Assembly: GCA_963839305.1 (NCBI GenBank)
Contig: CAWIUL010000011.1
Span: 2,633,561-2,697,560, forward strand
From: an uncultured delta proteobacterium
GTDB taxonomy: Bacteria > Myxococcota_A > Polyangia > Polyangiales > Polyangiaceae
Direction of reading: 5' to 3'
Length of the DNA: 64,000 bases
The position numbers and the translations under genes are program-made. The stretch's first letter is position 1; each line of letters begins with the position of its first letter. The notes under the pieces were generated by a model that made no database searches, had not been told where the DNA came from, and worked only from the letters and a program-made list of their open reading frames with translations. Of this stretch, positions 1 through 54,204 are shown in pieces.

Positions 1-50
1 GCTCCGCGTGTCGGATCGCGGCGTTCGCTGGGGTCTCGCCGAGTCACTCG

Positions 51-443
51 TCACGGCCCGCACGGCGGCGCACAGCCGCTGACGCACTGGTCGCACGCGA
101 CGACGCACGCGGCGTTGCACGCGTTCTGAGCGTCGGTGCACTGCGCGTGGCAGGCCTTCGAGCCGTCGTCGAGGTTGCACGCGGCGTTGCACGCCTTCGC
201 GTTGGTGGCGCAGACCTTCTTGCACGCGTCCTTTTCCGCGCTGCACCCGCTCGCGTCGCACGTGCTCGCTTCTAGAACGCTCGCGTCGTGGGCGCTCGCG
301 TCTCCCGGCTCTTCGGCGCCTGCCTCGTCGTTCGTTGCGGTATCGCTCCCGGCGTCCGGTCCCTCCACGCGCGGGTCTCTCCCGACGACCCAGGTGCAGC
401 CAGCGAACGCGAACGCGAGGATGGCCCACCGCAGGTGGCTCAT
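51..443 (-). CDS. Small secreted Cys-rich lipoprotein (130 aa, 16 Cys in repeated A-C-x-x-x-C spacing).
   Basis: Signal peptide with lipobox LAFAGC. Acidic linker, then a Cys-rich C-terminus. Its ATG overlaps the TGA of the upstream gene (TGATG at 441-445). Confidence 0.55.
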   Translation of the reverse strand: MSHLRWAILAFAFAGCTWVVGRDPRVEGPDAGSDTATNDEAGAEEPGDASAHDASVLEASTCDASGCSAEKDACKKVCATNAKACNAACNLDDGSKACHAQCTDAQNACNAACVVACDQCVSGCAPPCGP

Positions 444-1300
444 CAGAACCTCATCGAGAGCGTGGGCGTCGCGTGACGCGTGTGCGACGTCGCGAGCAAC
501 ACGATGCTCGTGACGACGAGCACCGCGCCCACACCCAGGAAGACGTCGCTCGCGATCGCGAACGAGTGAGCGGCGTCGTGCGCGCTCACGCCCTCGGGCG
601 TCGTGCAGATCCCGTTCGGACACTGGGCGTTGCTCGCCGAGAGGCTCGTCAGCGCGAAGACGCCGGTCACGGTGCCGGCGACGAGCGACGCGAGGCCCAC
701 CCCGCCGAGCGTGAACCCGACGGCGCGCTTCGGGTCCGGCCGACTCGCGCCGTGCTCGACTTGGAGATCGCGCTCTTCGCCGCGACGCACGATCACGGTG
801 TACGACTGCTCGCGATATCCGCCCTCGCGAACGACGACGAAGTGTCGGCCCGGATCGACGGGCAGCGCCACGCCGAGCGTCATGTCGCCGAGCTCGACGC
901 CATCGCGAAACACGCGCGCCGTCTCGGAGGCGTGCGCGAGGCGCACGCGAAGCTTCGGCATCGAGCGCTCGAGGTTTCGCGCGCGCTCGAGCGCCACGGC
1001 CTTTCGGTCGTCGGTCTCCGGGAGCGCGTCGGCGAGCGCGAGGAAGTCGCGCCACGCGCGGGTGAGCTGCCCGCGCGTCTCCTCGCAGTCGGCGAGGTTC
1101 AAGAGCGTCCCGGGCGCGGGGTCGAGCCTGTGGCTCGCCTCGAACTTCTCGCACGCGACGGCGAAGTTCCCGAGATCGGCCGCGCGGCGGCCTTCGCGAA
1201 ACAGGAGCTCCGCGTCCACCGCGGAGCGCCCGTCTGCTCGAGCTGCACCTGCGGACGAGATCACGAACGCGAGCGCGAGGAGCGACGAGTGCGTGCGCAT
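443..1300 (-). CDS. Secreted/membrane-anchored hypothetical protein (285 aa) co-transcribed with the Ser/Thr kinase.
   Basis: N-terminal signal peptide, TPR-like helical region, C-terminal TM segment. Tightly coupled to the kinase stop (1303) and the downstream lipoprotein. Confidence 0.6.
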   Translation of the reverse strand: MRTHSSLLALAFVISSAGAARADGRSAVDAELLFREGRRAADLGNFAVACEKFEASHRLDPAPGTLLNLADCEETRGQLTRAWRDFLALADALPETDDRKAVALERARNLERSMPKLRVRLAHASETARVFRDGVELGDMTLGVALPVDPGRHFVVVREGGYREQSYTVIVRRGEERDLQVEHGASRPDPKRAVGFTLGGVGLASLVAGTVTGVFALTSLSASNAQCPNGICTTPEGVSAHDAAHSFAIASDVFLGVGAVLVVTSIVLLATSHTRHATPTLSMRF

Positions 1301-1302
1301 GG

Positions 1303-2679
1303 TCAGTATCGCCGGTCGAACAGGGTGCTTCGGCGGGAGAGGCGGCTGACGCTGCTCGCGCGCGAGCCGATCACGTCTTCGTGCGATCGCGCGTGCGTCA
1401 TCTGCGGCTGGATCTGGATCGCGGGCGACGCGTTCGGCTTGGCCCGCAGCGGCGCGTCGTCGTCATCGACGTCTTGCACGTCTTGCACGGCGAGCGGCGC
1501 GAGCGGAGGCGGTGGCTCGACGTTCGCGGCAGCCGCAGCGAGCGGTACGAGGGGCGAGACGGCCACGGCGCCCTCCGAGGGCTCCGTTCGCGCGTGCGCG
1601 CTCACGACGAACGCCCCGATGAGCGCGACAGCGACCGGCGCGACGAGCGCGGCGAGGAGCGGCGTGCGAGCGCGGCCGCGGCGGATCGTCGTCGCGAGGC
1701 GCGCGCGGATCGACGACGCGATGGACACCGCGGGTGTCGACGTGTCCACGCTCGGGGAGGGCGTCGGAGGGATCGGCTCGCCCGTGAGCGCGACGTGCGC
1801 CGCTTCGACCGCGGCGCGCATTTCGACCGCGTCCGCGTAGCGCGCGCGTTTGTCGTACGAGAGCGCGCGATCGATGATCTCCGCGACGACGCCGGGCACG
1901 TCGCCGGCTTGCTTCACGGGCCGCGCGGGGCGCGTGATGACCGCGACGAGCAGCTCGGCCACCGTCATCGCACCGGGGTGAATCGGCTCCCCGGTCGCGA
2001 GCGAGAACATCGTCGCCCCGAGCGAGTAGAGGTCGCTCTGCGCGTCGACCGCTCGCCAGTGTCCGCGCGCTTGCTCGGGCGCCATGAACGCAGGCGTGCC
2101 AATCGGCTCACCCGATTGCGTCACGCGCTGCGCCTCGCCGAGCGCGTTCCATCGCGCGATCCCGAAGTCGAGGATCTTCACCATCCCGTCGTTCGTGAGG
2201 AGCAGATTCTCCGGCTTCACGTCGCGATGCACGATGCCTCGCGCGTGTGCGCACGCGAGCGTGTCGAGGATCTGCGCGGTGAGTCGCAAGAGCTCGCTCG
2301 GCGGAAGCGTTCCGCCACGATCGAGCGCGAGGTGGTCGAGCGTCTTGCCCGCGAGCAGCTCCATCACGAGGAAGGCGCTGCCGTCCTCCGTCTCGTCGTC
2401 GTCGAGCACGCGCACCGCGCCGACGTGAGCGACCTCGTTGGCGAGGCGACCTTCACGCAGGAAGCGCTCGCGACAATCCTTCGTGCGCGAGAGCGCGACG
2501 TCGAGGACCTTCACGGCGCCGCGCATCCCGTTGCGGTGGCGCGCTTCGTAGACGGCGCCCATCCCGCCGACGCCGATGAGTCGCTCGAGGCGCCACTTCC
2601 CACGAAGCGTCGAGCCGATGCGCTGATGCGCTTCGTCCTTCTGAACACTTTCGGGCGGCTCCAGCAGAACGGTCGGCAC
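1303..2679 (-). CDS. Serine/threonine protein kinase.
   Basis: Hanks kinase motifs: GVGGMGAVY...AVK, HRDVKPENLLL, DFGIA, GTPAFMAPE. GTG start in track. C-terminal Pro-rich region plus TM. Confidence 0.9.
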   Translation of the reverse strand: MPTVLLEPPESVQKDEAHQRIGSTLRGKWRLERLIGVGGMGAVYEARHRNGMRGAVKVLDVALSRTKDCRERFLREGRLANEVAHVGAVRVLDDDETEDGSAFLVMELLAGKTLDHLALDRGGTLPPSELLRLTAQILDTLACAHARGIVHRDVKPENLLLTNDGMVKILDFGIARWNALGEAQRVTQSGEPIGTPAFMAPEQARGHWRAVDAQSDLYSLGATMFSLATGEPIHPGAMTVAELLVAVITRPARPVKQAGDVPGVVAEIIDRALSYDKRARYADAVEMRAAVEAAHVALTGEPIPPTPSPSVDTSTPAVSIASSIRARLATTIRRGRARTPLLAALVAPVAVALIGAFVVSAHARTEPSEGAVAVSPLVPLAAAAANVEPPPPLAPLAVQDVQDVDDDDAPLRAKPNASPAIQIQPQMTHARSHEDVIGSRASSVSRLSRRSTLFDRRY

Positions 2680-3013
2680 GGAGACCCGTCGAGCAAGAAG
2701 CGTGCGCTTGGCCGAAACGGGCCGCTTCGTGGGGTTTGCCGGGCGGTCGCAGCTTCGTCCTCACCACGAACGCCACAACCCGCACGGGGTCGCCCCAACG
2801 GTCAGAAACACAAAAGCACACCTTATTGATTTGCATCAATGAAAGCGGCCTTCGATTGGTTGACAAGACGAGGTCTAAAAAAGTAGAGTGCGCCTGCCTG
2901 ATCCTCTAGCCGCGGTTCGACAGTTACGAACGAACGGCTTACCGGCAATCTCACGCTCCGACTGCAACTCGGGAGCGCGCGATGTTTTTTGTCGAGAACA
3001 CCAAGGAGACGCC

Positions 3014-3520
3014 ATGCAAGTTGGAACGGACGTCAAGTTCAAGGTTGGCGACAAGGCGGTTTACCCGGCGCACGGCGTCGGCGAGATCGTCCGCATCGTG
3101 GAGCTCGACATCGCTGGCGCGCGTCAGAAGTTCTACGAGGTTCGCATCCTCGACAAGAACCAGAAGACCGTGAAGATCCCGGTCGCCACGGCCTCGAACG
3201 TCGGACTCCGCCAACTGGTCGGTGAGCAGGAGATCGAGGAGATCTTCGACATCCTCCGCGAGCGCACGATCAACTTCGACAAGCAGACCTGGAACCGCCG
3301 CTATCGCAGCTTCCGCGCGAAGATCCAGACCGGCTCGATCTACGACGTCGCCGAGGTGCTTCGCGATCTGTACCGTCTCAAGACGGACAAGCAGCTCTCG
3401 TTCGGCGAGCGGTCGATGCTCGACATGGCGCGCACGCTCATCGTCAAAGAGATCGCGTGCTCGCGCGGCCAGACCGAAGAGCAAGTGAAGACCGAGATCG
3501 AGTCGATCTTCGTCAACTGA
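3014..3520 (+). CDS. cdnL: CarD_CdnL_TRCF family transcriptional regulator (CdnL).
   Basis: MQVGTDVKFKVGDKAVYPAHGVGEI... is the typical CdnL N-terminal RNAP-interacting domain. RBS AAGGAG sits 7 nt upstream of the ATG at 3014. The ORF extension from 2888 was rejected. Confidence 0.9.
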   Translation: MQVGTDVKFKVGDKAVYPAHGVGEIVRIVELDIAGARQKFYEVRILDKNQKTVKIPVATASNVGLRQLVGEQEIEEIFDILRERTINFDKQTWNRRYRSFRAKIQTGSIYDVAEVLRDLYRLKTDKQLSFGERSMLDMARTLIVKEIACSRGQTEEQVKTEIESIFVN

Positions 3521-3521
3521 C

Positions 3522-3770
3522 TCACGTCTCGAGGAGCCCGAACTCCCAGCTCTCGTCCGGCTCGCGTAAGCCGGCGATCGCCGCCTCCACGCGCTGAAGG
3601 AGCTCTTGCGGGCTCGCGCGTGGGGAGGGGCGCACGGCGACGGCGATTCGTTTCAAGCCGTTCTCCGCTGGCCATTGCCACACGCGGGCCGCGGCGACGC
3701 CGTCGACTGCGTAGACGATCTCCAACATGCGACGCATGCGGGGTGAGAGCTCCGTTCCGGTCTGGGTCAT
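3522..3770 (-). CDS. Small hypothetical protein (82 aa), last gene of the nosL-like ABC operon.
   Basis: ATG at 3768-3770 overlaps the stop of the upstream NosL-like gene (ATGA). The sequence is coding-like and not Arg-rich. Confidence 0.5.
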   Translation of the reverse strand: MTQTGTELSPRMRRMLEIVYAVDGVAAARVWQWPAENGLKRIAVAVRPSPRASPQELLQRVEAAIAGLREPDESWEFGLLET

Positions 3771-4153
3771 GGTGCGAGCGCCTTTTCGTCGACGTCGGCT
3801 AGCGCGAGCGCGCGCGTGCCGCCGTGATCTTTTTCGAACTTGGCGACGCGCGCGGCGTCGACCGGGACGAGATCGGGTCCCATCGGGCCGACGACGTCGC
3901 TCCCGATGACGAAGCGCACGTCCGACGCGGGGCGGAGCGCGCGATCGTAGTAGTCCTGCACGCGCACGGCGCCGTGCTTTCCGCCCTCGAGCCACGTCGA
4001 GAGCGCGCAGCGCGGCGTGTCGAAGCGTCGAGCGTCGAGCTCCGCGTTCCACGGGCTCGTGGGATCGATCTTCATGCCGCAGCGCGCGCATCGCGCGCCG
4101 TCCTGCTTGCAGGAAGCGACGAGGAGTAGCGCGAAGAGCGATCGAGCTCTCAT
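3767..4153 (-). CDS. NosL-like copper-chaperone lipoprotein (128 aa).
   Basis: Lipobox LLVASC. Motif CARCGMKIDP matches the C-x-x-C-G-M-x-I copper-binding motif I recall from NosL. Further similarity to P. stutzeri NosL in ...CALSTWLEG... and YVIGSDVVGPMG. ATGA overlap with the upstream permease gene. Confidence 0.75.
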   Translation of the reverse strand: MRARSLFALLLVASCKQDGARCARCGMKIDPTSPWNAELDARRFDTPRCALSTWLEGGKHGAVRVQDYYDRALRPASDVRFVIGSDVVGPMGPDLVPVDAARVAKFEKDHGGTRALALADVDEKALAP

Positions 4154-5169
4154 CGGAAGAGCGAGGCTCCGTTCGAGACGAACGCCCAGCGCGCGACCGG
4201 GATGATGCACATCACGGTGCAGACGACCCACGCGATCGCGCCGCGACGAAAGCGCGACGACGCGAAAGAGCCCCACGATTCGCGGAGCGCAGGCGCGCGC
4301 GCCAAGAGCGCGGACGCGCCCGCGCCGAAGAGCCAGATGGCGCCGAGGAGCATCGCGCCGAAGAGCGGGTAGCCGATCGCGGCGAAGTCGGGACGAAGGA
4401 GACAGAACGGGCAATGGTGCTGCGGCGCCTCGAACGCGTACGGCGCGACGTGCAAGACGACCGCGGCGAGCCCGAGCGGCAGGGCCAGCGACGCGAGCGC
4501 GCCGGTGAGCACCGCGAGCGGACGGCGCGGGCGGCGAGCGCACGCGAGCGCGAGCGCGATCGACGTGGTGCCCGCGATCGCCGCGAGGACGACCGACACG
4601 ACGCGGGGTCCCGCGGCGGTGCCCGCGCGCGCGGACGCGACGGCGTCGAGCTGCACCGAGCAGCACGAGGCGACGACGCTCAGATCGAGGTCCAGCAAGA
4701 ACACGATCTGAAGCGCGAGATCGATCGCCGCGAGCGGCGCGACGAAGAGCGTGGCCCACGCGAGCGAGCGAACGAGCTCCATGCCTCGAACGCGCGCGTC
4801 GAACGCGAAGAGCTGCGCGAGCGTTCCCGCGGCGAGCGCTGCGACGAGGCTCGCGCCGAGCGCGCGGAACCCCCACGGGCTCGAGTTGAACGTGCCGTAC
4901 GCGCACATCGCGCCGCGGATGCCGCGACTCAGCTTGTCGGCCGCGAGCGCGGAGAGGAGCAGCGCGACGACCTGCGCCGCGGCCCCGACGCGAACGAACG
5001 TGGCCGCGAGCTCGACGCGCCGCTCGAGCGCGAGCTGGCCTTCGGTCGCGCGCATCACGTCGAAGCGGCGAATCACGGTGAGCGCGGTGAAGCTCGCACG
5101 GACCAGCAGCGCGGTCGCGACGACTCCTGCGATGACGCGGAGGAATACCCACGGCTCGAGGAGCTGCAC
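4150..5169 (-). CDS. Polytopic membrane protein (339 aa), probable ABC transporter permease partner.
   Basis: About 8 hydrophobic TM segments. Positioned between the ABC ATPase and the NosL-like gene. Contains an HHCPFC motif. Confidence 0.7.
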   Translation of the reverse strand: MQLLEPWVFLRVIAGVVATALLVRASFTALTVIRRFDVMRATEGQLALERRVELAATFVRVGAAAQVVALLLSALAADKLSRGIRGAMCAYGTFNSSPWGFRALGASLVAALAAGTLAQLFAFDARVRGMELVRSLAWATLFVAPLAAIDLALQIVFLLDLDLSVVASCCSVQLDAVASARAGTAAGPRVVSVVLAAIAGTTSIALALACARRPRRPLAVLTGALASLALPLGLAAVVLHVAPYAFEAPQHHCPFCLLRPDFAAIGYPLFGAMLLGAIWLFGAGASALLARAPALRESWGSFASSRFRRGAIAWVVCTVMCIIPVARWAFVSNGASLFR

Positions 5170-5173
5170 GGCC

Positions 5174-5848
5174 CTATTCTAGCGTGCGAATGCGGCCATC
5201 TGTGACCTCGATGATGCGCGTGACGCCGGGCGCGGCCGTGACGCGCGCGTCGTGGGTCGCGGTGACGATGGCACAGCCGTCCTTCGCGATCGCGCCGATC
5301 TCGCCGAGTATCTGCGCGGCGCGAGCGTCGTCGAGGTGAGCCGTGGGCTCGTCGAGCAGGAGGAGCTTGGGGTTTCCGAGCATCGCGCGTGCGATCGCGG
5401 CGCGCTGGCGCTCGCCGCCCGAAAGCTGCCGCGCCTTGGTATGCGCGAGCGACGCGATCCCGAAGCGCTCGAGGAGCGCGTCGGCGCGCGCGCGATGCTC
5501 GTCGCGAACGCCCACGGGCACGAACGGCAGAAGCACGTTGTCGCGCACGGTGAGGTCGTCGATGAGCTGCAGGTCTTGAAAGACGAACCCCACCGTCGTC
5601 CGTCGAAGGACCGCGCGGTGCTCGTCGCGAAGGCGAGAGGTCGGCTCGTCGTCGAAGAGCACCTCGCCGGCGGTCGGTCTCGACATGGCGCCGATGAGCG
5701 CGAGGAGCGTCGTCTTGCCGCTCCCGCTCGGCCCGCGCAGCACGATCCACTCGCCACGCGCGACCTCGAAGCTCGCGTCGTCGACGATCGTACGGCGCGC
5801 GCGCCCATCCCAGACCTTCTTGGTGACGTTGCGAACGGCGAGCAGCAC
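5174..5848 (-). CDS. ABC transporter ATP-binding protein (FtsE/LolD/MacB-like).
   Basis: Walker A GPSGSGKTTLL, signature LSGGERQR, Walker B LLLLDEP, H-loop. GTG start. Confidence 0.9.
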   Translation of the reverse strand: MLLAVRNVTKKVWDGRARRTIVDDASFEVARGEWIVLRGPSGSGKTTLLALIGAMSRPTAGEVLFDDEPTSRLRDEHRAVLRRTTVGFVFQDLQLIDDLTVRDNVLLPFVPVGVRDEHRARADALLERFGIASLAHTKARQLSGGERQRAAIARAMLGNPKLLLLDEPTAHLDDARAAQILGEIGAIAKDGCAIVTATHDARVTAAPGVTRIIEVTDGRIRTLE

Positions 5849-5983
5849 GGCGTGCCATCATGTGTCATGCGCTTGGGGGCTGACAACCGCGTCGTGCTCG
5901 CACCGCGGGAAAATCGCTAAACAAGGTGGTTGCCAGCTGTTGTGCCGCTGGCACTTGGCGTGCATGCTTGGGGCTGGGCCTCC

Positions 5984-6289
5984 ATGCGCCTTCGCGTCTT
6001 CACCCTCGTCTGTCTTTTTTCCGGCGCCGCCGCGGTCTGGGGCTGTTCACTCAACCCGCAGCCGCTCCCGCCGGACACGGCAGACGGCGGGATTGACGCG
6101 TCCCAGCTCTCTGGGCCGGACGCGACGGGTGGCGCCGATGCAGGCAACACTGCGGACACGTCTCCTCCCCCTACGGGCGACGCGTCGATCGACGCGACGG
6201 AAGATGCGGGCGAGGACGCCAACGACGCCAGCGATGCCAGCGACGGGAGCGAGAGCGACGCGCTCGCCGACGCGGGAGAAGACGGATGA
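5984..6289 (+). CDS. Acidic Asp/Ala/Gly-rich lipoprotein, paralog A.
   Basis: Signal peptide with lipobox VWGC, followed by a conserved SLNPQPLPP motif and a low-complexity acidic tail. The start at M19 of the longer ORF was chosen. Confidence 0.6.
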   Translation: MRLRVFTLVCLFSGAAAVWGCSLNPQPLPPDTADGGIDASQLSGPDATGGADAGNTADTSPPPTGDASIDATEDAGEDANDASDASDGSESDALADAGEDG

Positions 6290-6582
6290 AGCTCCGTACG
6301 CTCCTCGTCGCGCTCGTGGCTTTCGCTTGCAGCGCAGGTGCGTGCTCGCTCAACCCGCAACCGCTTCCGCCGGGCCAGTACGACGCGGCCACGACCGGAA
6401 GCCCTGACGCGGGCAAAGGCGACGACGGCGGCGCGTTCGGCGACGGCGGCGTGCCGACGAGCGAGGACGCAGGAAGCGACGCGAGCGAGGAGGACGCGGG
6501 CGACGCAGAGACCGACGCGGGCGCGGGCGACGCCGAGGTCGACGCCGAGGTCGACGCGGTCGCCGACGCGCCGAGCGACTAA
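6286..6582 (+). CDS. Acidic Asp/Ala/Gly-rich lipoprotein, paralog B (tandem duplicate).
   Basis: MKLRTLLVALVAFACSAGACSLNPQPLPP... has the same motif as the upstream gene. ATGA overlap with paralog A. Confidence 0.6.
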   Translation: MKLRTLLVALVAFACSAGACSLNPQPLPPGQYDAATTGSPDAGKGDDGGAFGDGGVPTSEDAGSDASEEDAGDAETDAGAGDAEVDAEVDAVADAPSD

Positions 6583-7100
6583 CGCACGTACTCGTCGAGC
6601 ACGTTCGCGGCGATGTCCGCGAGGATCCCGTCCGTCACGCGGAGGCGACGCGAGAGATCGCGCGCCACGTTGAGCACGACGATCGCGTACGATTTCACGT
6701 CGTGCCGATAGAGCGAGTCGAGATCTTCGGCCGCGATGCGGAGCAGGCGCGTGGGCGCGAGCGAGCGCACGGTCGCCGAGCGCGGCTGGACGTCGATGAT
6801 CGACATCTCGCCGAACGCGTCGCTCGGGCCGAGGATCGCGATGCGTTGCGTGCGGCCGCGACGGCTCTTCTTGAGCACTTCGACCTCGCCGTCGAGGACG
6901 ACGAACATGTCGTGGCCTTGATCGCCCTCTTGGAACACCGTGGCGCCCGGCGCGACGCGGCGCTGCTGGAGCATGCTCGCGAGGTGCGTGAGGACCTCAT
7001 CGGAGAGCGCGCCGAAGAGGCCGATTTCGCGCAGACGATCCGTCGTCGGGGGGCCGTCGACCGGCGCGGCGTTTGGCATGCGCGGCTGACTGCTACTCAT
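6579..7100 (-). CDS. Cyclic nucleotide-binding domain protein.
   Basis: cNMP-binding fold motifs (FQEGDQG..., FGEMS). The internal ATG at 7098-7100 was chosen because it overlaps the GNAT stop. The longer ORF to 7244 was rejected. Confidence 0.75.
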   Translation of the reverse strand: MSSSQPRMPNAAPVDGPPTTDRLREIGLFGALSDEVLTHLASMLQQRRVAPGATVFQEGDQGHDMFVVLDGEVEVLKKSRRGRTQRIAILGPSDAFGEMSIIDVQPRSATVRSLAPTRLLRIAAEDLDSLYRHDVKSYAIVVLNVARDLSRRLRVTDGILADIAANVLDEYVR

Positions 7101-7540
7101 GACGCGAGCTCCTTCGAGAACACGATGCGCTTTCGCCCCGGTCCCGCGTAGTCGTCGATTTCGTGCGCGGCCCACCCCTGCGAGGTGTGGAAGCGAATGG
7201 AGCCTTCGTTGCCCGTGGTCGTGATCGCCTTCAGCTTCGTGCAACCCGCGGCGACAGCGCCCTCGGTGAACTTCGCGTAGAGGCGGCGACCCACGCCCTT
7301 GCGGCGGTGATCGGGGTGAATTCCGACGAGGTGCACGTAGCCCGTGCGCGTCGGCTCGTGGGCGATGAACCCGAGGAGGAAGCCGATCATCTCACCGCCT
7401 TCTTCCACGACGAGGGCCATGCCGCCGAGCTCGTAGAAGAAGATCGGGTGCGCGAAGGTGCTGATCGGACCACCCCACCAGTGGTCGATGACCTCGACGA
7501 TGCGGTCGAAGTCGGCTTTGGTGATCTTCCGCGTGTCCAT
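7097..7540 (-). CDS. GNAT family N-acetyltransferase.
   Basis: GNAT motif A region HRRKGVGRRLY. 147 aa. Confidence 0.85.
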   Translation of the reverse strand: MDTRKITKADFDRIVEVIDHWWGGPISTFAHPIFFYELGGMALVVEEGGEMIGFLLGFIAHEPTRTGYVHLVGIHPDHRRKGVGRRLYAKFTEGAVAAGCTKLKAITTTGNEGSIRFHTSQGWAAHEIDDYAGPGRKRIVFSKELAS

Positions 7541-7601
7541 CCCGGGTTGAGCCGAAACATCGAACTTTTGGAGGGCCGGCGCAACGCCTTTCGGTTAGAT
7601 C

Positions 7602-8273
7602 GTGCGCATGACCCGCCTCCGCATCGCTCCGTCGATCCTGTCCGCCGATTTCGGACGTCTGGCGGACGAGGTGCGCGCCGTCGAGGCCGCGGGAGCCGAT
7701 GTGATCCACGTCGACGTGATGGATGGCCGCTTCGTCCCGAACATCACCATCGGCCCGCCCGTCGTGGCCGCGTTGCGCAAGGTGACCAAGCTCCCGCTCG
7801 ACGTCCACCTGATGATCGTCGAGCCCGAGCGGTACGTCGAATCATTCGCGGAGGCGGGGGCCGACACGATCCTCGTGCACGTCGAGGCGTCGCCCCACCT
7901 CCACCGTACGCTCCAGTCGATCCGCAAGCTCGGCAAGCGCGCGGGCGCGGTGCTCAACCCTTCGACGCACGAGAGCACGCTGCTCTACGTGATGGACGTG
8001 GTCGACCAGATCCTCGTGATGAGCGTGAACCCCGGGTTCGGCGGGCAATCGTTCATCCCGGAGGTCCTCCCCAAGGTGCGCGCGGTGCGCGCGATGATCG
8101 GCTCGCGCGACGTCGACATCGAGATGGACGGGGGGATCGCGCCGGGCACGATCGGACCGGCCGCGGAGGCGGGCGCGAACGTGTTCGTCGCGGGCAGCGC
8201 CGTGTTCGGATCGAAGGACTACGCGAAGACGATCGCGGCGCTCCGGGCGGAGGCCGAGCGCGCGACGCGATGA
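7602..8273 (+). CDS. rpe: Ribulose-phosphate 3-epimerase.
   Basis: Full-length match to the Rpe family: [25 protein letters not shown]. Confidence 0.95.
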
Positions 8274-9409
8274 GGGCGCTCGCGGCGCTGCCCGTGATCG
8301 CGATCGCGCTCGCGTGCGGCGCCTCGAAGCCGCCGAGCCTAGACTCGCGGGAGCTCTTGCCTGCGCCGAGCGCCAAGCCGGACGCGCCCGCGATCGATCC
8401 CGTGCTCGCTCGCATGGCGCGCGCGAGAGAGCTCGACGCGGTGCGTCCCGTGCGGCGCGTTTCGGTCGATCGCGCCGAGTGGATCGCGACGCTCGAGGCC
8501 CACGTCGCGCGAGAGGTGCCGCGTGACGAGATCGACAGCGAAGAGTCCTTCTTGAAGGCGCTCGGCGCGCTCCCGCTCGACGTGGACTACGAGCGCGGCG
8601 TCTACGACTCGATCCGTGGAAGCGGCGGCGGGATGTACGAGCCGTTCGATCGCACGATCTACCTGCCCGATGATCTTCCTCCCGGAGAGCTCGAGCGCAC
8701 GCTCGAGCACGAGTCGGTTCACGCGCTTCAGGATCAACGTTTCGATCTGCGCGCGTTCGAGCGGTATTTGCCTGGCGCGACCGACACGATGCTCGCGCGG
8801 TCGTGCCTCGCGGAGGGCGACGCCTCGGTCGCGGCGAACGAGCGCTTCTCGCCGAGCGCGGCCACGTACATCGAGCGCGAGCTCGCCGCGCCGTACGTCT
8901 ACGGCTCGGCGTTCGTCTCGGCGCTCCGCGCGCGAGGCGGGTGGGCCGAGGTCGATCGCGCGTGGAAGCGGGAAGCGCTGACGACGCACGAGATCCTCCA
9001 CCCCGAGAAGTGGCCGAGCGCGCCGCCAGCGCAAGTCCCCGCGCCCACCTTCGCGACGCTCGGCGGCGCATTTCACGTGGCGAGCGTCGACGTGAAGGGC
9101 GAGCTCTCGCTCTTGCTCGTGCTCCAGTCGATCGGCGCGAGCGCGCGCGTCGAAGCGCCCGCCGCGGGTTGGGCCGGTGATCGCGCCGTGCTCGCGCGCG
9201 ACGGAAAGCGCACCGCCCTCGCGTGGCGGATTCGCTTCGAGGACGACGTCACGGCGAGCCGCACGGCCGCGCTCTTCGGCCCGTGCGACGAGCGCCGCTT
9301 GAGCCCGATCGCCGCGTTTCGAGCCGCGCGCGACGTCCTCGTCCTTTCGGGACCTGCCGGCGCGCGGTGCGATCTCTTGGCGCGCTGGTCGAAGGAAGTT
9401 TTGCCGTAG
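8270..9409 (+). CDS. Putative zinc-metallopeptidase-like lipoprotein (HExxH).
   Basis: Signal peptide with lipobox IALACG and an HESVH motif. ATGA overlap with the rpe stop. Sits in the true frame inside a long spurious 748-aa ORF. Confidence 0.65.
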
Positions 9410-9424
9410 TAAGGTCCCAAGACC

Positions 9425-11113
9425 GTGACGCACGAGAACGAGAAGAAAGACCCGCTCGCGTTCCTCAAGAGCGATCACGCGATCGGTTTGGGCATCGGCG
9501 TCGTGTACGTCGCGTGGCTCCTCTCGACCTCGCGCGAGCTCGGCTTTCCGCGCGACGAGGGCTTCTACTTCCACGCGGCCACAGACTACGCGCGCTGGTT
9601 CGACATGCTCTTCGAGCACCCGTCGCAAGCGTTCGACCGCGCGACCATCGACGGCATCTGGCAGGAGAACCACGAGCACCCCGCGCTGATGAAGAGCCTC
9701 TTCGCGCTCTCGTGGCACTTCTTCTACGAGAAGTGGCACTGGTTCAAGGACGCGAGCACGGCATTCCGCTTTCCCGGCATGGTGATGGGGGGCCTTTCGC
9801 TCTACGTGACGTACCTCTTCGGCGCGCGCGCGTTCTCTCGGCGCGCGGGCGCGCTCGCCGCGGTGCTCCTCGGCTGCATGCCCGCGGTGTTCTTCAACGC
9901 GCACCTCGCGTGCTTCGACGCGCCCATCATGACGATGTGGCTGCTCAGCGTGTTCGTGTACTGGCAGTCGATCAAGCGCGGCGGCCTCGGGTGGGCGATC
10001 GCGGCGGGCGTCGTCTACGGGCTCACGCTCGAGACGAAGCACAACGCGTGGATCATGCCGGCGGTGTTCTTGCCGCACGCGCTCTTCGTGATGCGAAAGC
10101 CGATCGCGCGCGAGGTCCGCGTCGGTCGCCTTCCGCTACCGACGAGCATTCTCTCGATGGCGATCCTCGGGCCGCTCACGTTCTGGGCGCTCTGGCCGTG
10201 GATGTGGAACGACACGCTGCCGCGAGTTCAGGAGTACCTGAACTTCCACATGAACCACGTCTATTACAACATCGAGTACCTCCACAAAAACTACTTCGGG
10301 CCGCCTTCGCCGCGCTCGTACGCGCCGGTGCTCATCTTCGCGACCGTTCCGACGACGACGATCGCGCTCTTCCTCGTGGGCGCGTTCGATCGACTTCGCG
10401 TCCTCGCGCTGCGCCTCTACGCGGCGGTTCGAAAGCAGGCGGGCGCCGTATCCGGCGACCGCGCGGAGACCGATCTGCTCCTCTTCCTCGCGCTCTCTGC
10501 GCCGCTCGCCGTGTTCGTGCTGCTCTCGAAGACGCCGATTTTCGGCGGCACGAAGCACTGGCTACCCGCGTATCCGTTCCTCGCGCTCTTCGCGGGACGC
10601 GGGTTCGACGTGATCGGCGAGAAGGTCATCGCGGCGATCGATCGCATCAAGACCGACGCGCAGCGCACGGGCGCGTGGGCGGCGCTGTTCGCGCTCCTCG
10701 CCCTTCCGCCCGCGATCATCACGCGGCACTCCGACGTCTACGGGCTCGCGACGTACATGCCGTTCGTCGGCGGAAACCAGGGCGGCGCGGACCTCGGGCT
10801 GAACCGGCAATTCTGGGGTTACACGACCGAGCAGCTCGAGCCGTACTTCGAGAAGAACGCGCCGCCGCGCGCGACGGTGTTCATCCACGACACCGCGTGG
10901 GACTCCTGGGGCCGCATGCAGGCGGAGCACCGCATCCGCCCCGATTTGCAGGCCGTGGGCTCGCCGGGCGAGGCGATGTTCGGCATCGTCCACCACGAGC
11001 TCCACATGAGCGAGGTCGACTATCAGGAGTGGATCGCGTTCAACACCGACGCGCCCGACTACGTGCTCACGCACGACGGCGTGCCGATCATCTCGGTGTA
11101 CCGCCGCAGGTGA
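9425..11113 (+). CDS. Glycosyltransferase family 39 (ArnT / PMT-like) membrane protein.
   Basis: Many TM helices, a DEG-containing first loop and the PMT_2-type topology. Confidence 0.8.
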   Translation: MTHENEKKDPLAFLKSDHAIGLGIGVVYVAWLLSTSRELGFPRDEGFYFHAATDYARWFDMLFEHPSQAFDRATIDGIWQENHEHPALMKSLFALSWHFFYEKWHWFKDASTAFRFPGMVMGGLSLYVTYLFGARAFSRRAGALAAVLLGCMPAVFFNAHLACFDAPIMTMWLLSVFVYWQSIKRGGLGWAIAAGVVYGLTLETKHNAWIMPAVFLPHALFVMRKPIAREVRVGRLPLPTSILSMAILGPLTFWALWPWMWNDTLPRVQEYLNFHMNHVYYNIEYLHKNYFGPPSPRSYAPVLIFATVPTTTIALFLVGAFDRLRVLALRLYAAVRKQAGAVSGDRAETDLLLFLALSAPLAVFVLLSKTPIFGGTKHWLPAYPFLALFAGRGFDVIGEKVIAAIDRIKTDAQRTGAWAALFALLALPPAIITRHSDVYGLATYMPFVGGNQGGADLGLNRQFWGYTTEQLEPYFEKNAPPRATVFIHDTAWDSWGRMQAEHRIRPDLQAVGSPGEAMFGIVHHELHMSEVDYQEWIAFNTDAPDYVLTHDGVPIISVYRRR

Positions 11114-13025: not shown

Positions 13026-14678
13026 TCAGCCGCGCGCGGCGCGCTCGAGCTCGAAATAGAACGAGACGAGGTCGCTCTCGCGCGACCCTTGCTGGAAGAA
13101 GCGGTAAACGCGCCCGATCGGCCACACGCGCGTCGTCGGGGGCACCATCATCGACCAGCGGCCCGGCTCGTCGCCCTCGGTCTCGATCCACTGCGCGCCG
13201 AGGCGGCGCGCGAGGATCTCGCTGAGCAGCGCGCCGTGACGCGTCAGCTCGGTCTCGAGCATGCGCGCTTGGCGCTCGTCGCGCTTGGCGTCACCGAACC
13301 TACGCCGCAGGTGGCGCTGCATCGCCTCGATAGCGACCGGATCGGTCTTGAGCGTCGTCCCGTACGAGAGGCGGTAGTCGCGCGCGAGCTCTCGCGCGAG
13401 CTCGGTCATCTTCGCGCGCGCCGCGTCGCCCTCTGGGATGGCCATCGTCTCGACGACCTCGGCCCCCGAGCGCGCTCCTCCTTCGATGCTCGGCATCGCC
13501 GGCGCGCGCGGGATCGCTTGAGCGGGCGGGAGCGACGCGCCCGCGGGCGCCGCCGCGGGACGATCGCTGATCACGACGTCCGGCGGCCGGAGCGACGCCG
13601 CGGGCGGCGGCCGCATCGACTCGTTGGTCTTCGCGGTCGACTCGAGGATCTCGACCGCGGAGATGCGCGCGCCCGATCCCGCGACGGGGTCCTCGGTCAC
13701 GCGGCGCGCGAAATACCGCGCGTACGCGATCTCGCCGCTCGCGAGCCACGCGCGCGCGGCGAGCACCGCGAGCTCGGACTCGGGTTTGTCACCGCCGGCC
13801 ATCGCGGTGAGAAAGTGCGCGACCTCGCGCAAGCGCGTCTCGCCGTGGAGCATCGCCGAGTGCGCTCGGAGCTCGTCGATGAGCGGCGCGGGCGCGTGCT
13901 CCGCGTGCTCGTCCGCGACGATCATGTCGGGGAGCGCAGCCGCTTGCACCGGGTTCGACGGCGGGCGACGCGACAGCGCGGAGGCGAGCGCGTGGAGGCG
14001 CGGACGCTCTCGGCTCAGCGCGGCCCGCGCGCGCAAATCCGTCACGACGTCCGCGTCCACCTCGGCCTCGTTCGCGGCTCGCCTCGCGTCGATCGGCCGC
14101 TTCGTGAGCGCGAGCGCGTGCGGGAGGTCCTCGATGGCGTCGACGGTCATCCGTCGCCACGTTCGCTGGTTCGCCTTCGTGCGATCGGGGTCGGTCAAGA
14201 GGCGCACGGGGGTGTCGTCGGGCACCTCCGCGAGGACCATCGCGAGGTGCACGAGCTGCAGCGCGAACGCACCGCGTTCCATCGGGCACGCGTCGGCGAT
14301 CGCCCCAAGGTCGAGCCAGGTCCCTCCGTAGTGACGCGCGGTCGCATCGTAGACGCCACCCTGAAACGCCTCGCACGGACCGAGCTGCGACGCGACGCGC
14401 ATGATCGCCGCCGTACGCGCGAGGCTTTCACACGGCCCGAGCGATCGAAACGCCGCGCGCGCGAGCTCCGTCGTCGCACCTGCTCGAACGAGACGATCGC
14501 GCGCGATTGACGCGGTCGTCAGATACCCCTGCTCGCGCACGCCCACGCCCCCAGAAGGCGCCGCGAGGAGCACCTCGGACGCGTCGAAGAGCGCGTACTC
14601 GATCTCGAGCACCCCTTCGGATCGTGCAACGACCCAGTCACCCACGACGAGGCTCGTAGCCACTGCTGGCCATGCTAC
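13026..14678 (-). CDS. Hypothetical protein; start uncertain.
   Basis: Long minus-strand ORF with coding-like composition. The 5' part of the 692-aa ORF overlaps the PilZ gene on the opposite strand and is probably not translated. No recognised domain. Confidence 0.4.
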   Translation of the reverse strand, partial: VAWPAVATSLVVGDWVVARSEGVLEIEYALFDASEVLLAAPSGGVGVREQGYLTTASIARDRLVRAGATTELARAAFRSLGPCESLARTAAIMRVASQLGPCEAFQGGVYDATARHYGGTWLDLGAIADACPMERGAFALQLVHLAMVLAEVPDDTPVRLLTDPDRTKANQRTWRRMTVDAIEDLPHALALTKRPIDARRAANEAEVDADVVTDLRARAALSRERPRLHALASALSRRPPSNPVQAAALPDMIVADEHAEHAPAPLIDELRAHSAMLHGETRLREVAHFLTAMAGGDKPESELAVLAARAWLASGEIAYARYFARRVTEDPVAGSGARISAVEILESTAKTNESMRPPPAASLRPPDVVISDRPAAAPAGASLPPAQAIPRAPAMPSIEGGARSGAEVVETMAIPEGDAARAKMTELARELARDYRLSYGTTLKTDPVAIEAMQRHLRRRFGDAKRDERQARMLETELTRHGALLSEILARRLGAQWIETEGDEPGRWSMMVPPTTRVWPIGRVYRFFQQGSRESDLVSFYFELERAARG

Positions 14679-14756
14679 TCCGAAGCGCTCGTTCGTCGAA
14701 ACAAGGCGCTGGCGTGGCCGAGCCGCAGGCGTATCCTCGATGTTCGGAGGTAGTCG

Positions 14757-15083
14757 ATGGAGGAACGCCGTCAATTTCGACGACTGCAAGTTCCCGTCTA
14801 CTGCCGCGCAGCCGGCATGGAGGTGATGACGCGTCGTCACCCGATCGACTTGAGCCTCGGCGGCGTTCGTATCTACAGCGATCAGCGCTTCGCCAAAGGC
14901 GAGCTTTTGACCCTCGAGCTCATGACCGTCGATGCCCCCGCGAGCACCTTCACCGCCGAGGTCATGTGGATCGAAGACCTCCCAGCTGGATCCCCCGCTC
15001 TGTACGATGTTGGCCTGAGATTCCGCAGCGTTGACCCCACCCAGGCCACCGCGCTGGAGCGGATGTTGGCGAAATCCGAGTAG
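14757..15083 (+). CDS. PilZ domain protein.
   Basis: PilZ c-di-GMP-binding motifs RRQFRR and DLSLGGVRIY. 108 aa. Confidence 0.8.
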   Translation: MEERRQFRRLQVPVYCRAAGMEVMTRRHPIDLSLGGVRIYSDQRFAKGELLTLELMTVDAPASTFTAEVMWIEDLPAGSPALYDVGLRFRSVDPTQATALERMLAKSE

Positions 15084-15177
15084 TTTCGACCACATCGCAC
15101 CCACGAAAACATTTCGGCACCTCGGAGTACAAGGTGGGATAGGTTGTCATGGGCTTTGCATCAGCCTCCCTACTAAG

Positions 15178-19990: not shown

Positions 19991-21198
19991 TTCGCGGCCT
20001 TCTCCCTCGTCGTACGAACCCACGTGCTCGGTCGGTCCGACGCGGCCAGTCCGAGCTTCCAGACGACGTACACCGGCGCCCACGCGAGGTCGAGCGCTGC
20101 CCGCGGCCCGAGCCGCGTGAGCTGAACACCACGGAAGACGTACGCGCCGACCATGGCGCCCGCGACGGTCCACGGGATCCACGCGACCGGGCGCGAGCCG
20201 GTCGCGATCGCGAGGGCTGCCGTGATCGCGGACGCGCCGAGGCCGAGTACGATCGAAACACCGAGCTTCGAGAGCGGCGGCGTCAGGAGATCGGCGCCGA
20301 GGTCGAACAGCATCGCGTTGCGCTCGACGATACCGCGCTTCAAGAGGCGCCAGCCGTGCTTGTCCGTGAGCTCGCGGCGGCCTTCTTCCCAGCGTTGCCG
20401 CTGCGAGCGCGCGGCCTTGCCCGTCGAGACCATCTCGCCGAGCACCGCGGCCTCGCCCACGTACGCGACGCGATGGCCCGCTTCGCCGAGGCGAATGCCG
20501 TACTCGACGTCCTCGACGATCGAGAACGCGTCGTGAGGGACCTCTCGGAGGACGCTGCACGCGAAGCCCATCCCGTTTCCGCGCAGGCCGCACGAGACAC
20601 CGAGTCGCTCGCGCGCGTTCGAGCGCACCACGTGGAAGAGCGACATCGCGATGACCATGAGCCGCGTGCGCCAAGAGGCCTCCGGGTTTCGCACGCCGTA
20701 CTCGGCTTGCACGGCGACCTCGCCCGCGGAGAAGCGCGCGGCGAACGCCATGAGCAGGTTCTTCGTGACGCGCGTGTCAGCGTCGACCACGACGACGGCG
20801 TCGGCGTGACCTCGAGCGAGCGCCTCTTCGAACGCGCGCGCGAGCGCGTAGCCTTTGCCGCGTTTCTCCGCGTCGACGCGCTCGATCACCTCGGCGCCAG
20901 CCGCTCGTGCGCGAGACGCGGTGGCGTCGCTGCAGTTGTCCGCGACGACCACGACGCGAAAGCGATCGCGCGGATAGTCCACGGCGAGCAGGCTCGCGAC
21001 GGTCTCGGCGATGTTCGCCTCCTCGTCGTGCGCGGGGACGATCACGTCGAAGTACGGGCGCTTGCCGTTCGCCTTGGGCGCCGCCTTCGGCTTCGACAGC
21101 GCGGTGAGCGCGCCGAGGTAGCCGGACGCGGCGAGCGTGGGGAGTGACGCCGCGGCTACCGCGCCGTCGAGGAGCCGAAAGGCGGTCCGGAGTCTCAC
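19987..21198 (-). CDS. Family 2 glycosyltransferase, membrane-anchored.
   Basis: DVIVPAHDEE, VVVADNCSD, VVVDAD, QRQRWEEG (QxxRW), C-terminal TM helices. GTG at 21198 overlaps the PCP stop. An alternative ATG lies at 21249. Confidence 0.8.
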   Translation of the reverse strand: MRLRTAFRLLDGAVAAASLPTLAASGYLGALTALSKPKAAPKANGKRPYFDVIVPAHDEEANIAETVASLLAVDYPRDRFRVVVVADNCSDATASRARAAGAEVIERVDAEKRGKGYALARAFEEALARGHADAVVVVDADTRVTKNLLMAFAARFSAGEVAVQAEYGVRNPEASWRTRLMVIAMSLFHVVRSNARERLGVSCGLRGNGMGFACSVLREVPHDAFSIVEDVEYGIRLGEAGHRVAYVGEAAVLGEMVSTGKAARSQRQRWEEGRRELTDKHGWRLLKRGIVERNAMLFDLGADLLTPPLSKLGVSIVLGLGASAITAALAIATGSRPVAWIPWTVAGAMVGAYVFRGVQLTRLGPRAALDLAWAPVYVVWKLGLAASDRPSTWVRTTREKAAK

Positions 21199-22676
21199 GT
21201 CTCGAGCTCCCCCAGGATCGGCAACTTGAGCTTCCGCTCGACCTGCCACGGTTCGACGATGACCCCGAGGCGCCGCTCGCGCAGCACGACGCCGCCGAAC
21301 GCGAAGACGAAGATCGCGAACGCGATGCCCAAGAAGAGCGCGATCGGGTTGGGGTTACGCGGGCGCCTCGTGACCTCGGCGGGGTGGACGATGCTGAAGC
21401 GGTATTTGTGCGCCGTCTTCGCGATGTCGAGCTCGATCTGCGCGCCGTCGATGCGGTTCTCGAGATCCGCGTATTTCTGGGCGCATTGCTGCAATTTCAT
21501 CTGCGCGACGGTGACCGCGGGATCCTCCTCCATGATGAGCCGCGAGCTCGGCGAACCCGTGAGCGCGGCGATCGTCGCGGCGGACGAGTGCGTCGTCGAC
21601 GCCGCGGCGATCGCGGTCGCGAGCGGCGGCGCGTTCACGGCCACCTTGTCGATGAGCGCGCGCTCCTCGTTGCGCAGGCGCGCGAGGTCCGGCGGCTCGG
21701 CCTGAGCCTCCACGAGCTTCTGCTTGAGCGCGACGACCGTCGGGTGCTCGGGCCTGTACTGAACGAGCGCGTCCGAGAGCTGCTTGTTCAGCTCGTTGAT
21801 GCGCTGCGTGCGCTGCGACTCGACCTGTTGGATCTCGTTGCGCTTGTCCTGGAGCGCTTGGAGGAGCGCGGGATCGACGGCCGGCGCGTTGGCGCTTGCC
21901 TTCGGCGCGGGCGGCGCCATGAAGCGCGGCTGAGCGACCGCGTTGTTCGCCTTCGCCGCCGGTTTCTTCTTCATCTCCAGCGACTCGAACTCGTCGCGCG
22001 CCTCGTCGAAATGCGACTTCTCCTCTTTCGCGTGCTGCTGCAGAATGTCGATCGCGTCGTTGATGACGCTGATCTCCGCGTCGTAGCGCGCGTCGATGAA
22101 GTTCTTCTCGACCGCGGAAGCGAGGTCATACGCCATCTGCGCGTCGGTCCACTCCGCGGTGATCGTGATCGTCGTGTCGTCGCTCGTGACGGTGAGCCGC
22201 TTCTCGAGCACTCCTTCGATCGCTCGCATCCGGTCTTGCTCATCCGGCCGTCCCGCGAGCTTCTCGGTGACGCGATCCCTCCAACGGAGGAGGGTCGGCC
22301 GCGACCCCGCCCACCGGTCGACGAGGTTCACTTGCTTGATGAGCCCGACGAGGTTGTCGTGCTGGAGGATCGTGTCGCCGACGTTCTTCGTGGGGTTGTC
22401 GGCCTCGCGCGGGACGGTGCGGTTCGGGTTTCCGAGCGCGGGGAGCACCAGGTTGCGCTGCGCGAGGATTTTCACCTCGGTCGAATACGTCCGCGGGTAG
22501 AGGACGAACAGCGCACCGCCCAGACCGAGCGACAGCACGAGGAGGGCGATGAACCTGTACGGGTTCCTCCTCGGAGCGCGCAGCACGTAGCCGACGAAGT
22601 CGGAGATGGCGTGTAGGTCAAGCCCCTCCTCTTCCTCCTCGTCTTCGTGCCGATTGTGATCTTCGCCTTTGGGCAT
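21195..22676 (-). CDS. Polysaccharide co-polymerase (Wzz/Wzc periplasmic domain) protein without a kinase domain.
   Basis: N- and C-terminal TM helices flank a long coiled-coil periplasmic region. Acidic N-terminus. Ends right after the second TM. Confidence 0.8.
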   Translation of the reverse strand: MPKGEDHNRHEDEEEEEGLDLHAISDFVGYVLRAPRRNPYRFIALLVLSLGLGGALFVLYPRTYSTEVKILAQRNLVLPALGNPNRTVPREADNPTKNVGDTILQHDNLVGLIKQVNLVDRWAGSRPTLLRWRDRVTEKLAGRPDEQDRMRAIEGVLEKRLTVTSDDTTITITAEWTDAQMAYDLASAVEKNFIDARYDAEISVINDAIDILQQHAKEEKSHFDEARDEFESLEMKKKPAAKANNAVAQPRFMAPPAPKASANAPAVDPALLQALQDKRNEIQQVESQRTQRINELNKQLSDALVQYRPEHPTVVALKQKLVEAQAEPPDLARLRNEERALIDKVAVNAPPLATAIAAASTTHSSAATIAALTGSPSSRLIMEEDPAVTVAQMKLQQCAQKYADLENRIDGAQIELDIAKTAHKYRFSIVHPAEVTRRPRNPNPIALFLGIAFAIFVFAFGGVVLRERRLGVIVEPWQVERKLKLPILGELET

Positions 22677-53910: not shown

Positions 53911-54204
53911 GGGCTTCCTTTTGTAGTCTGCGAGTGCTACGAAGTCATCAGCGGGATTGTTCCCCGCTTTTGTGGCCTCATCGACTCGGAAGCGTGAACC
54001 CCGCCAGGCCCGAGAGGGAGCAACGGTAGCGTGGAAGGGTGTGATGGGGCCTTTGCCTTTAAGGGCCGAAGGCGCTAGACCAGCCTTCAGGGAGCTCCCT
54101 CCCCAAAGTTTTTCGGTTCCGTTGATGCCCTCGGGCATCCGGAGCTTTCCTCACCACCTCAAGCTTCCGGTCGTGCCGCTCTGCGGCAGACCTTTTCGAG
54201 ATCC

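Follow-up and report, generated by a model that had tools for sequence, protein, structure and literature searches.

Introduction

What does a NosL-like copper chaperone do in an ATP-binding cassette (ABC) operon that holds no other nos gene? NosL has been studied almost solely as the chaperone of nitrous oxide (N2O) reductase, and our picture of the routes by which copper gets to cuproenzymes of the periplasm and the membrane is still incomplete. The question is raised by a stretch of 64,000 nucleotides from an uncultured delta proteobacterium of the Polyangiaceae (contig CAWIUL010000011.1), hereafter the window, whose G+C content is about 65-72%. Near one end lie four co-directional genes on the minus strand (5848-3522), encoding in this order an ATPase, a membrane protein with eight transmembrane (TM) segments that we designate TM8, the NosL-like lipoprotein and a small protein that we designate small82. 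An earlier note on this DNA had suggested a stand-alone Cu(I) trafficking or efflux system. Our analysis indicates that the operon is not particular to this genome but a trimmed form, confined to one lineage, of a widespread copper-linked module that would handle Cu(I) in the envelope.

Results

The operon

A GTG-start ABC ATPase, an 8-TM protein with the motif HHCPFC (residues 251-256), a NosL-like lipoprotein with CARCGMKIDP (residues 22-31) and an 82-residue open reading frame (ORF) had been described at this locus, and all four were found (Table 1). They had also been described as coupled throughout by ATGA overlaps; this is so for the TM8/NosL and NosL/small82 junctions but not for the ATPase/TM8 junction, where 4 nt (GGCC) lie between the TAG stop of the ATPase gene (5176-5174) and the GTG of TM8 at 5169. 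The same four genes occur in the same order in relatives at 57-98% identity, so the operon is not a chance arrangement.

Table 1. Genes and candidate promoter of the operon (positions in the window)
Feature	Position	Strand	Description
ABC ATPase	5174..5848	-	224 aa, GTG start; FtsE/LolD/MacB-like subfamily
TM8	4150..5169	-	339 aa, GTG start, predicted 8 TM; motifs GAMC (89), SCC (169-170), HHCPFC (251-256); uncurated family
NosL-family lipoprotein	3767..4153	-	128 aa; lipobox VAS-C15, Lys at +2; predicted ligands C22, C25, M27, D45/C49, M91
small82	3522..3770	-	82 aa, predicted cytoplasmic
Candidate sigma-70-like promoter	5857..5886	-	TTGTCA-18-CATGAT, upstream of the ATPase gene

The lipoprotein is a NosL

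The lipoprotein matched the Pfam NosL profile (PF05573) with 50.0 bits, well above the curated gathering score of 24 (E = 4.9e-13; residues 18-125, profile positions 6-130 of 131), and the family assignment made in the earlier note thus stands. A phmmer search of PDB with the single sequence reached no NosL; a seven-sequence profile, made from the protein and six homologues from related loci, was needed, and it retrieved 7og7, 7osf/7znq and 2hpu with E values of 1e-12 to 2e-6. In this profile alignment the CxxCGM motif, the Zn site and the GxMG loop line up with those of the NosL structures.

In NosL of Shewanella denitrificans, Cys62, Met64 and Met145 serve as Cu(I) ligands, strictly conserved and essential to function, while Cys59, Cys88 and Asp92 hold a structural Zn, the order of Cys88 and Asp92 being swapped in clade II; NosL binds Zn besides Cu, and its fold is shared with MerB (PMC8457098). 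We observed that C22-x-x-C25-G-M27 of the window protein aligns with the CxxCxM of S. denitrificans NosL (CHLCGM) and M91 (GPMG) with its second Met ligand (GAMG); all three essential copper ligands are kept, as C25, M27 and M91. At the Zn-type site C22 is present and D45...C49 occupies the Cys88/Asp92 positions, in the swapped order of clade II NosL (PMC8457098); this site is not conserved among distant module NosLs. Judged from its sequence, the lipoprotein is a true NosL that keeps its copper ligands; the family is known, and the protein is a new addition to it.

The lipobox, MRARSLFALLLVAS-C15 (VASC), was read directly off the sequence, and the lipidated Cys is followed by Lys at +2, as it is in the clade relatives L001 and L003. 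In Myxococcus xanthus this +2 residue is a mark of lipoproteins kept at the inner membrane (PMC3222651); the chaperone is therefore probably tethered to the inner membrane, beside TM8.

No nos cluster surrounds the operon

We carried out a Pfam scan of 20 window ORFs, namely 18 of at least 377 residues picked by their gene-typical third-position G+C and two shorter ones. None of the 20 contains a nos_propeller, COX2, NosD or NosR-type domain, and no nos genes were found within 10 kb on either side in two syntenic relatives. Within this range it is confirmed that NosZ, NosD and NosR are not nearby, and the lipoprotein lies outside any nos cluster at this locus. Nor does the locus have the NosDFYL set, in which NosD, an ABC-2-type NosF and an ABC2_membrane NosY accompany NosL. 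An ABC-2 pair (ABC_tran and ABC2_membrane_2, the Pfam family that includes NosY) is encoded at 51962-54138 on the minus strand, 46 kb from the operon; no NosD or NosZ lies beside it, and it is probably unrelated to the NosL operon.

TM8 represents an uncurated family with conserved cysteines

TM8 had no match in Pfam or NCBIfam, and no solved structural homologue was found for it. An exhaustive HMMER search nevertheless yielded 686 clusters at 50% identity (E ≤ 1e-3), and 357 at E ≤ 1e-10, nearly all of 320-350 residues; the named ones are all called "hypothetical protein". In an alignment of 40 sequences with identities down to 22%, only G86, C89, G92, C169, C170, C253 and G266 are invariant, and A87, M88, H251 and P254 nearly so. 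These residues define three predicted periplasmic motifs, GAMCxxG, (S/T)CC and HxCPF(C), in a family of about 335 residues and eight TM segments, and the window protein carries all three.

AlphaFold2 predicted eight long helices for TM8 (predicted local distance difference test score, pLDDT, 82.6; predicted template modelling score, pTM, 0.84). Across the family, Lys and Arg add up to 13.5 in the loops TM1-2, 3-4, 5-6 and 7-8 and to 3.9 in the two termini together with the loops TM2-3, 4-5 and 6-7. This distribution places the former loops in the cytoplasm, so that the conserved cysteines would all face the periplasm. The sole strongly conserved cytoplasmic feature is the TM1-TM2 hairpin, 23 residues long (32-54), with RxWD..EGQLxLER and, in the window protein, RxFD.

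We considered whether TM8 could be a disguised relative of DsbD_2, of the module FtsX or of P1B-ATPases, and hhalign found nothing; an internal duplication was likewise not detected when its N-terminal half was aligned with its C-terminal half. P0124 (583 residues), a candidate ATPase-TM8 fusion, was rejected, its N-terminal 247 residues being an unrelated secreted region. L013 is the nearest of the GTDB representatives (its best segment is 87% identical); there two overlapping ORFs (6766-9736) divide the matches to TM8 and the ATPase between them, which suggests a frameshift or an assembly error of the metagenome-assembled genome (MAG).

The ATPase is MacB/LolD-like, and its usual permease is missing

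The ATPase scored 129 bits with Pfam ABC_tran, and its best NCBIfam models were FtsE (170 bits), LolD (167) and DevA (162), all under the equivalog cut-offs of 265-308. These profile scores put it closest to the FtsE/LolD/MacB subfamily, and its Walker A, signature, Walker B and H-loop motifs are all intact. With the FtsX-linked module ATPase of L041 it shares 43% identity. Permeases of the FtsX type have four TM segments and, between the first two, a large domain in the periplasm; a module-specific hidden Markov model (HMM) for FtsX found no such ORF in the window at E < 1e-5. As far as sequence comparison can tell, TM8 is not a recognisable ABC permease either. The idea of a self-contained ABC transporter with its chaperone, which the earlier note implied, therefore fails for this operon.

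Homologous modules are widespread

We then looked at TM8 loci in one genome per GTDB species, by a motif-guided scan; the diverse alignment (A2) was too variable for this use, and a motif-matched subset (A5) was employed. At least 587 loci were confirmed. Carriers among the matches listed include Polyangiales, Sandaracinaceae, Verrucomicrobiota, many Desulfobacterota and Nitrospirota, Rhodocyclaceae (Dechloromonas, Azoarcus, Propionivibrio), Gallionellaceae, Sulfuricella, Chromatiales, Sedimenticola, Thioalkalivibrio, Magnetospirillum and Rhodobacter viridis.

For 89 loci, all with TM8, the ORFs were classified by home-made HMMs; where a component is missing, the locus is in many cases a short contig. 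A module-type ATPase was found in 72, NosL in 62 and a signal-anchored membrane protein of about 105 residues in 59, and an FtsX/MacB-type permease precedes the ATPase in 61. Less constant are a TlpA-like thioredoxin (30/89), DsbD_2 (20/89), a P1B-ATPase bearing an HMA domain (14/89), SCO1/SenC (10/89) and NosD (2/89). The usual order is NosL (one to three copies), ~105-residue protein, FtsX, ATPase and TM8, or alternatively with the NosLs after TM8. Start/stop overlaps between the ATPase and TM8 genes are frequent, also in distant loci (L006, L024, L035, L037). Pfam confirmed MacB_PCD with FtsX, SCO1-SenC, AhpC/Redoxin, DsbD_2, E1-E2_ATPase with HMA, NosD and an ABC-2 NosY among the neighbours; among 124 other flanking ORFs, two have NosZ domains (nos_propeller, COX2), two are multicopper oxidases and nothing else recurs.

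In Proteobacteria the module often adjoins genes for SCO1, TlpA-like proteins, DsbD_2 and P1B-ATPases, and occasionally nosZ or nosDFYL. The clearest physical link to N2O-reductase maturation is seen in Azoarcus taiwanensis (L078, 1084-10158), where the genes directly upstream of the module (~105-residue protein, FtsX, ATPase, TM8, NosL, NosL) are nosD, a nosF-like ATPase gene, nosY and nosL, all on one strand with it. An extended supercluster is present in Ca. Dechloromonas phosphorivorans (L088, 1965-15068) and in similar loci of Rhodocyclaceae and Gallionellaceae. It runs from a TonB-dependent receptor (in L088 only) through SCO1, the ~105-residue protein, FtsX, the ATPase and TM8 to a TlpA-like protein, a Pfam-negative protein of 224 residues (in 13 loci), a P1B-ATPase (HMA, HMA_2), DsbD_2, a NosL with a Tat-like signal and a second NosL. 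The module is thus usually independent of nos, yet it lies repeatedly within copper-biogenesis neighbourhoods.

A published description of a NosL-FtsX-ABC-8TM module was not found in the literature searched; most subscription journals were outside this search, so that its absence is unproven. The module is apparently undescribed, and its TM8 family apparently has neither a curated model nor a solved structural relative.

The clade of the window has a reduced version

The clade of the window comprises L001-L003 and L010-L013, with TM8 identities of 57-98% and the gene order ATPase, TM8, NosL, small82. FtsX and ~105-residue genes were not found within 8-10 kb in this clade nor anywhere in the window. 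As gene content indicates, the clade has lost these two genes and gained small82. Other myxobacterial loci vary: a Polyangiaceae MAG (L014) has NosL-TM8 with the ~105-residue, FtsX and ATPase genes 2.6 kb off, and eight Polyangiales loci have only NosL and TM8 (L015-L017, L019, L020, L022, L025, L026; mostly labelled Sandaracinus or Sandaracinaceae). NosL and TM8 stay together in every myxobacterial variant, and we suggest that this pair is the functional core. In six of the eight Sandaracinaceae TM8s the Cys motifs are intact while the cytoplasmic RxWD motif and Q45 are lost; this loss where ATPase and FtsX are absent suggests that the cytoplasmic hairpin serves the ATPase/FtsX part.

With the home-made model, small82 was detected only in the clade of the window, directly after the NosL gene in all seven loci where it was found and on the same strand in six. 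It has no Pfam match, and its homologues number only 46, none below 58% identity. The protein contains no signal, no TM segment, no Cys and no His, and AlphaFold2 predicted an alpha-beta-beta-alpha-beta arrangement (pLDDT 89.9). It was considered as a homologue of the ~105-residue membrane protein of the canonical module, and the two are not homologous. Nor was any sequence-level match found to the C-terminal domain of cation diffusion facilitator (CDF) transporters (MamM, MamB, CzcD; ZT_dimer); small82 lacks His and Cys metal ligands and is free-standing, unlike that domain, which is fused to its transporter.

Two relatives carry, about 9 kb from the operon, a gene of the MbnB_TglH_ChrH family (DUF692; L003, 20239-21038) and an HvfC_N gene (L001, 20464-21020); the counterpart of this region falls beyond the window edge. 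Some members of these families are implicated in the biosynthesis of metal-binding peptides.

Upstream signals and neighbouring genes

A sigma-70-like promoter match lies 9-38 nt 5' of the ATPase start. It is the sole consensus match in 3300-6300 (shuffled sequences gave a mean of 0.0); the candidate is based on this match alone, and the upstream regions of relatives align poorly. When the upstream regions of six clade members were compared in a search for an operator, no clear alignment was obtained. A sigma-54-like TGGCA-N6-TTGT spotted by eye 5' of the ATPase gene was dropped, as it is not conserved among relatives. An Rfam scan of 1-9000 detected no RNA element.

At its 3' end the operon converges with a gene for a CarD/CdnL-family transcription factor (CarD_TRCF_RID and CarD_C; 2888-3520, plus strand), located 1 nt from the small82 stop; L001 and L003 show synteny here. 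With the GTG start listed for this gene, the protein has an N-terminal extension of about 40 residues, its homologues having 168-169. Divergent from the operon are two tandem small ORFs (5930-6289 and 6286-6582, plus strand) for Asp/Gly/Ala-rich putative lipoproteins, both with a signal peptide ending in GCSLNPQPLPP and without Pfam match; L001 and L003 have two Pfam-negative small ORFs at the equivalent position. Farther away, at about 15000-43800, is a region for polysaccharide synthesis and export (Bac_transf, GT2, Polysacc_synt flippase, Wzy_C polymerase, GH44), in which large ORFs without Pfam match are found at 13026-15104, 21195-22676, 26839-28857 and 39267-40655. P450 and RNase E/G are among the other domains of the scanned ORFs.

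Discussion

A candidate envelope relay for Cu(I)

With a confidence slightly better than even, we consider that the operon is best explained as a reduced NosL-TM8-ATPase module which would relay or supply Cu(I) in the envelope for cuproprotein maturation. The NosL-like protein, probably retained at the inner membrane, would exchange Cu(I) by ligand swapping with a periplasmic Cys4/His site of TM8, and TM8 would either move Cu(I) across the membrane or hold it for hand-off to a client cuproprotein. Conformational energy would come from the MacB/LolD-type ATPase, in most organisms through the FtsX-type permease and the ~105-residue membrane protein; in the clade of the window the ATPase may act directly on the TM8 hairpin (residues 32-54) or via an unlinked FtsX. 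In this scheme small82 would be a cytoplasmic accessory. The purpose would be copper supply for envelope cuproproteins rather than detoxification, because homologous modules sit with SCO1, TlpA-like proteins, DsbD_2 and CcoI-like P1B-ATPases, and sometimes with nosZ, nosDFYL or multicopper oxidases. Of the two functions that the earlier note had offered, Cu(I) trafficking agrees with a NosL that has copper ligands, with the lack of a nos cluster and with the copper-linked neighbours of homologous modules, whereas efflux finds no specific support and the neighbourhoods lean towards cuproprotein biogenesis.

Several observations weigh against a supply relay. The pLDDT is as low as 41-68 in the Cys loops of TM8, so that the model gives no geometry for the proposed site, and metal specificity is read from family membership and gene neighbourhood alone. 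The other cytoplasmic loops of TM8 are short and the protein does not resemble known ABC permeases, which makes a direct ATPase-TM8 coupling speculative; the decay of the motif seen in Sandaracinaceae counts as one phylogenetic event only. Finally, strict anaerobes (Desulfobacterota, Nitrospirota), in which periplasmic cuproenzymes are few, are numerous among the carriers, and in L006 the module stands beside a CusAB-like resistance-nodulation-division (RND) pump, directly after its CzcB/YHS-ACR_tran pair; both facts fit detoxification equally well.

Detoxification of copper (or silver), in which NosL would take periplasmic Cu(I) to the TM8/ABC machinery for removal or sequestration, is the first alternative to be weighed, and we regard it as unlikely. 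Besides the L006 locus, it draws on the anaerobic hosts, in which Cu(I) is especially toxic, and on MacB-type (type VII) ABC systems, which expel substrates from the periplasm. However, in none of the 89 loci is the module accompanied by a membrane-fusion protein or an outer-membrane factor, the recurrent neighbours are of the biogenesis type (SCO1, TlpA-like, DsbD_2, NosD/NosZ), and the permease that would have to carry out the expulsion, FtsX, is missing from the window version.

The cysteines of TM8 could be read in another way, as those of a thiol-disulfide oxidoreductase with a function like that of CcdA, DsbD or VKOR, or of a persulfide carrier, and not of a metal binder; TM8 would then keep the cysteines of NosL or of a client reduced, or supply sulfide. 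The four invariant cysteines do include a vicinal pair and, with CPFC, a CxxC-like motif in periplasmic loops, and TlpA-like proteins and DsbD_2 are the commonest extra neighbours. But several members have D or N in place of the second Cys of CPFC, which leaves no conserved CxxC pair, and there are no conserved cysteines on the cytoplasmic side for an electron relay across the membrane. Moreover, hhalign did not find a relation to DsbD_2, and the same clusters contain a DsbD_2/TlpA pair of their own, which suggests that TM8 receives reducing equivalents rather than providing them. We therefore think such a thiol or sulfur relay quite improbable.

That the substrate is another thiophilic metal (Zn, Cd, Hg), as the Zn binding of NosL, its MerB-like fold and the vicinal Cys pairs of mercury transporters might suggest, or that the operon is a decaying remnant with its ATPase uncoupled from TM8 and NosL, as the missing FtsX and ~105-residue genes might, is highly improbable, given that the copper-specific Met ligands are conserved, that SCO1 and NosD/NosZ neighbours point to copper, and that the four genes are intact and conserved across the clade with all ATPase motifs present.

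Comparison with known systems

The supply relay that we favour has a close counterpart in NosDFYL. Its NosL (PDB 7og7, 7osf, 2hpu) and that of the window share the Pfam family, the lipoprotein signal, the CxxCxM motif and the second Met, and both are encoded beside an ABC ATPase and a membrane protein. Unlike in NosDFYL, no nosZ, nosD, nosF, nosY or nosR is nearby, the NosL of the window has 128 residues against about 180 and is only distantly similar, the partner ATPase is of the MacB/LolD type and not an ABC-2-type NosF, the membrane partner is TM8 instead of NosY, and there is no NosD beta-helix acceptor. In its logic, that of a chaperone feeding an ABC-driven periplasmic machine, the module resembles NosDFYL, with different parts.

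The ATPase of the window resembles those of the type VII ABC systems (MacB, LolCDE, FtsEX), and most relatives also have the MacB_PCD + FtsX permease before the ATPase, which suggests mechanotransmission into the periplasm and not transport across the membrane. In contrast to these systems, the window lacks the FtsX permease, no MacA/TolC-like partner occurs anywhere in the module, and a Cys-rich 8-TM subunit and a NosL chaperone are constant in it. We know of no characterised type VII system with these two companions.

Lastly, the modules of Beta- and Gammaproteobacteria are embedded among genes of copper-chaperone relays (SCO1/SenC, PCuAC, TlpA, CcoI/CopA2), extra genes that the operon of the window does not have. 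The module would share the logic of these relays, with periplasmic exchange between Cys, Met and His ligands and a supply of reductant, but they are not known to contain an ABC ATPase or a polytopic Cys4 membrane protein.

Implications

We also put forward, as a possibility that we hold only tentatively, that TM8 is a new family of polytopic copper-handling proteins, part of a second ABC-driven copper-insertion machine which would be analogous to NosDFY and serve several envelope cuproenzymes, with a core workable without FtsX. If this is true, the machine would consist of NosL paralogues, the ~105-residue protein, the MacB-type FtsX/ATPase and TM8, and would be spread over Myxococcota, Desulfobacterota, Nitrospirota, Verrucomicrobiota and Pseudomonadota. 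Its clients would be N2O reductase in some denitrifiers and oxidases or multicopper oxidases elsewhere, and the clade of the window would show a NosL-TM8-ATPase core working without the FtsX permease.

The crystallographers of NosL noted that some homologues lie outside nos clusters. Such orphan NosLs are now given a conserved set of genetic partners, a new Cys4 membrane protein family and a MacB-type ABC engine. No fewer than 587 places in species-representative genomes carry this set, among them denitrifiers where nosDFYL adjoins it. To learn which parts are essential, the reduced version of the myxobacteria could serve as a minimal system. A copper-insertion or relay machine of this kind would be a major added route in bacterial copper homeostasis, and could bear on the maturation of N2O reductase under copper limitation.

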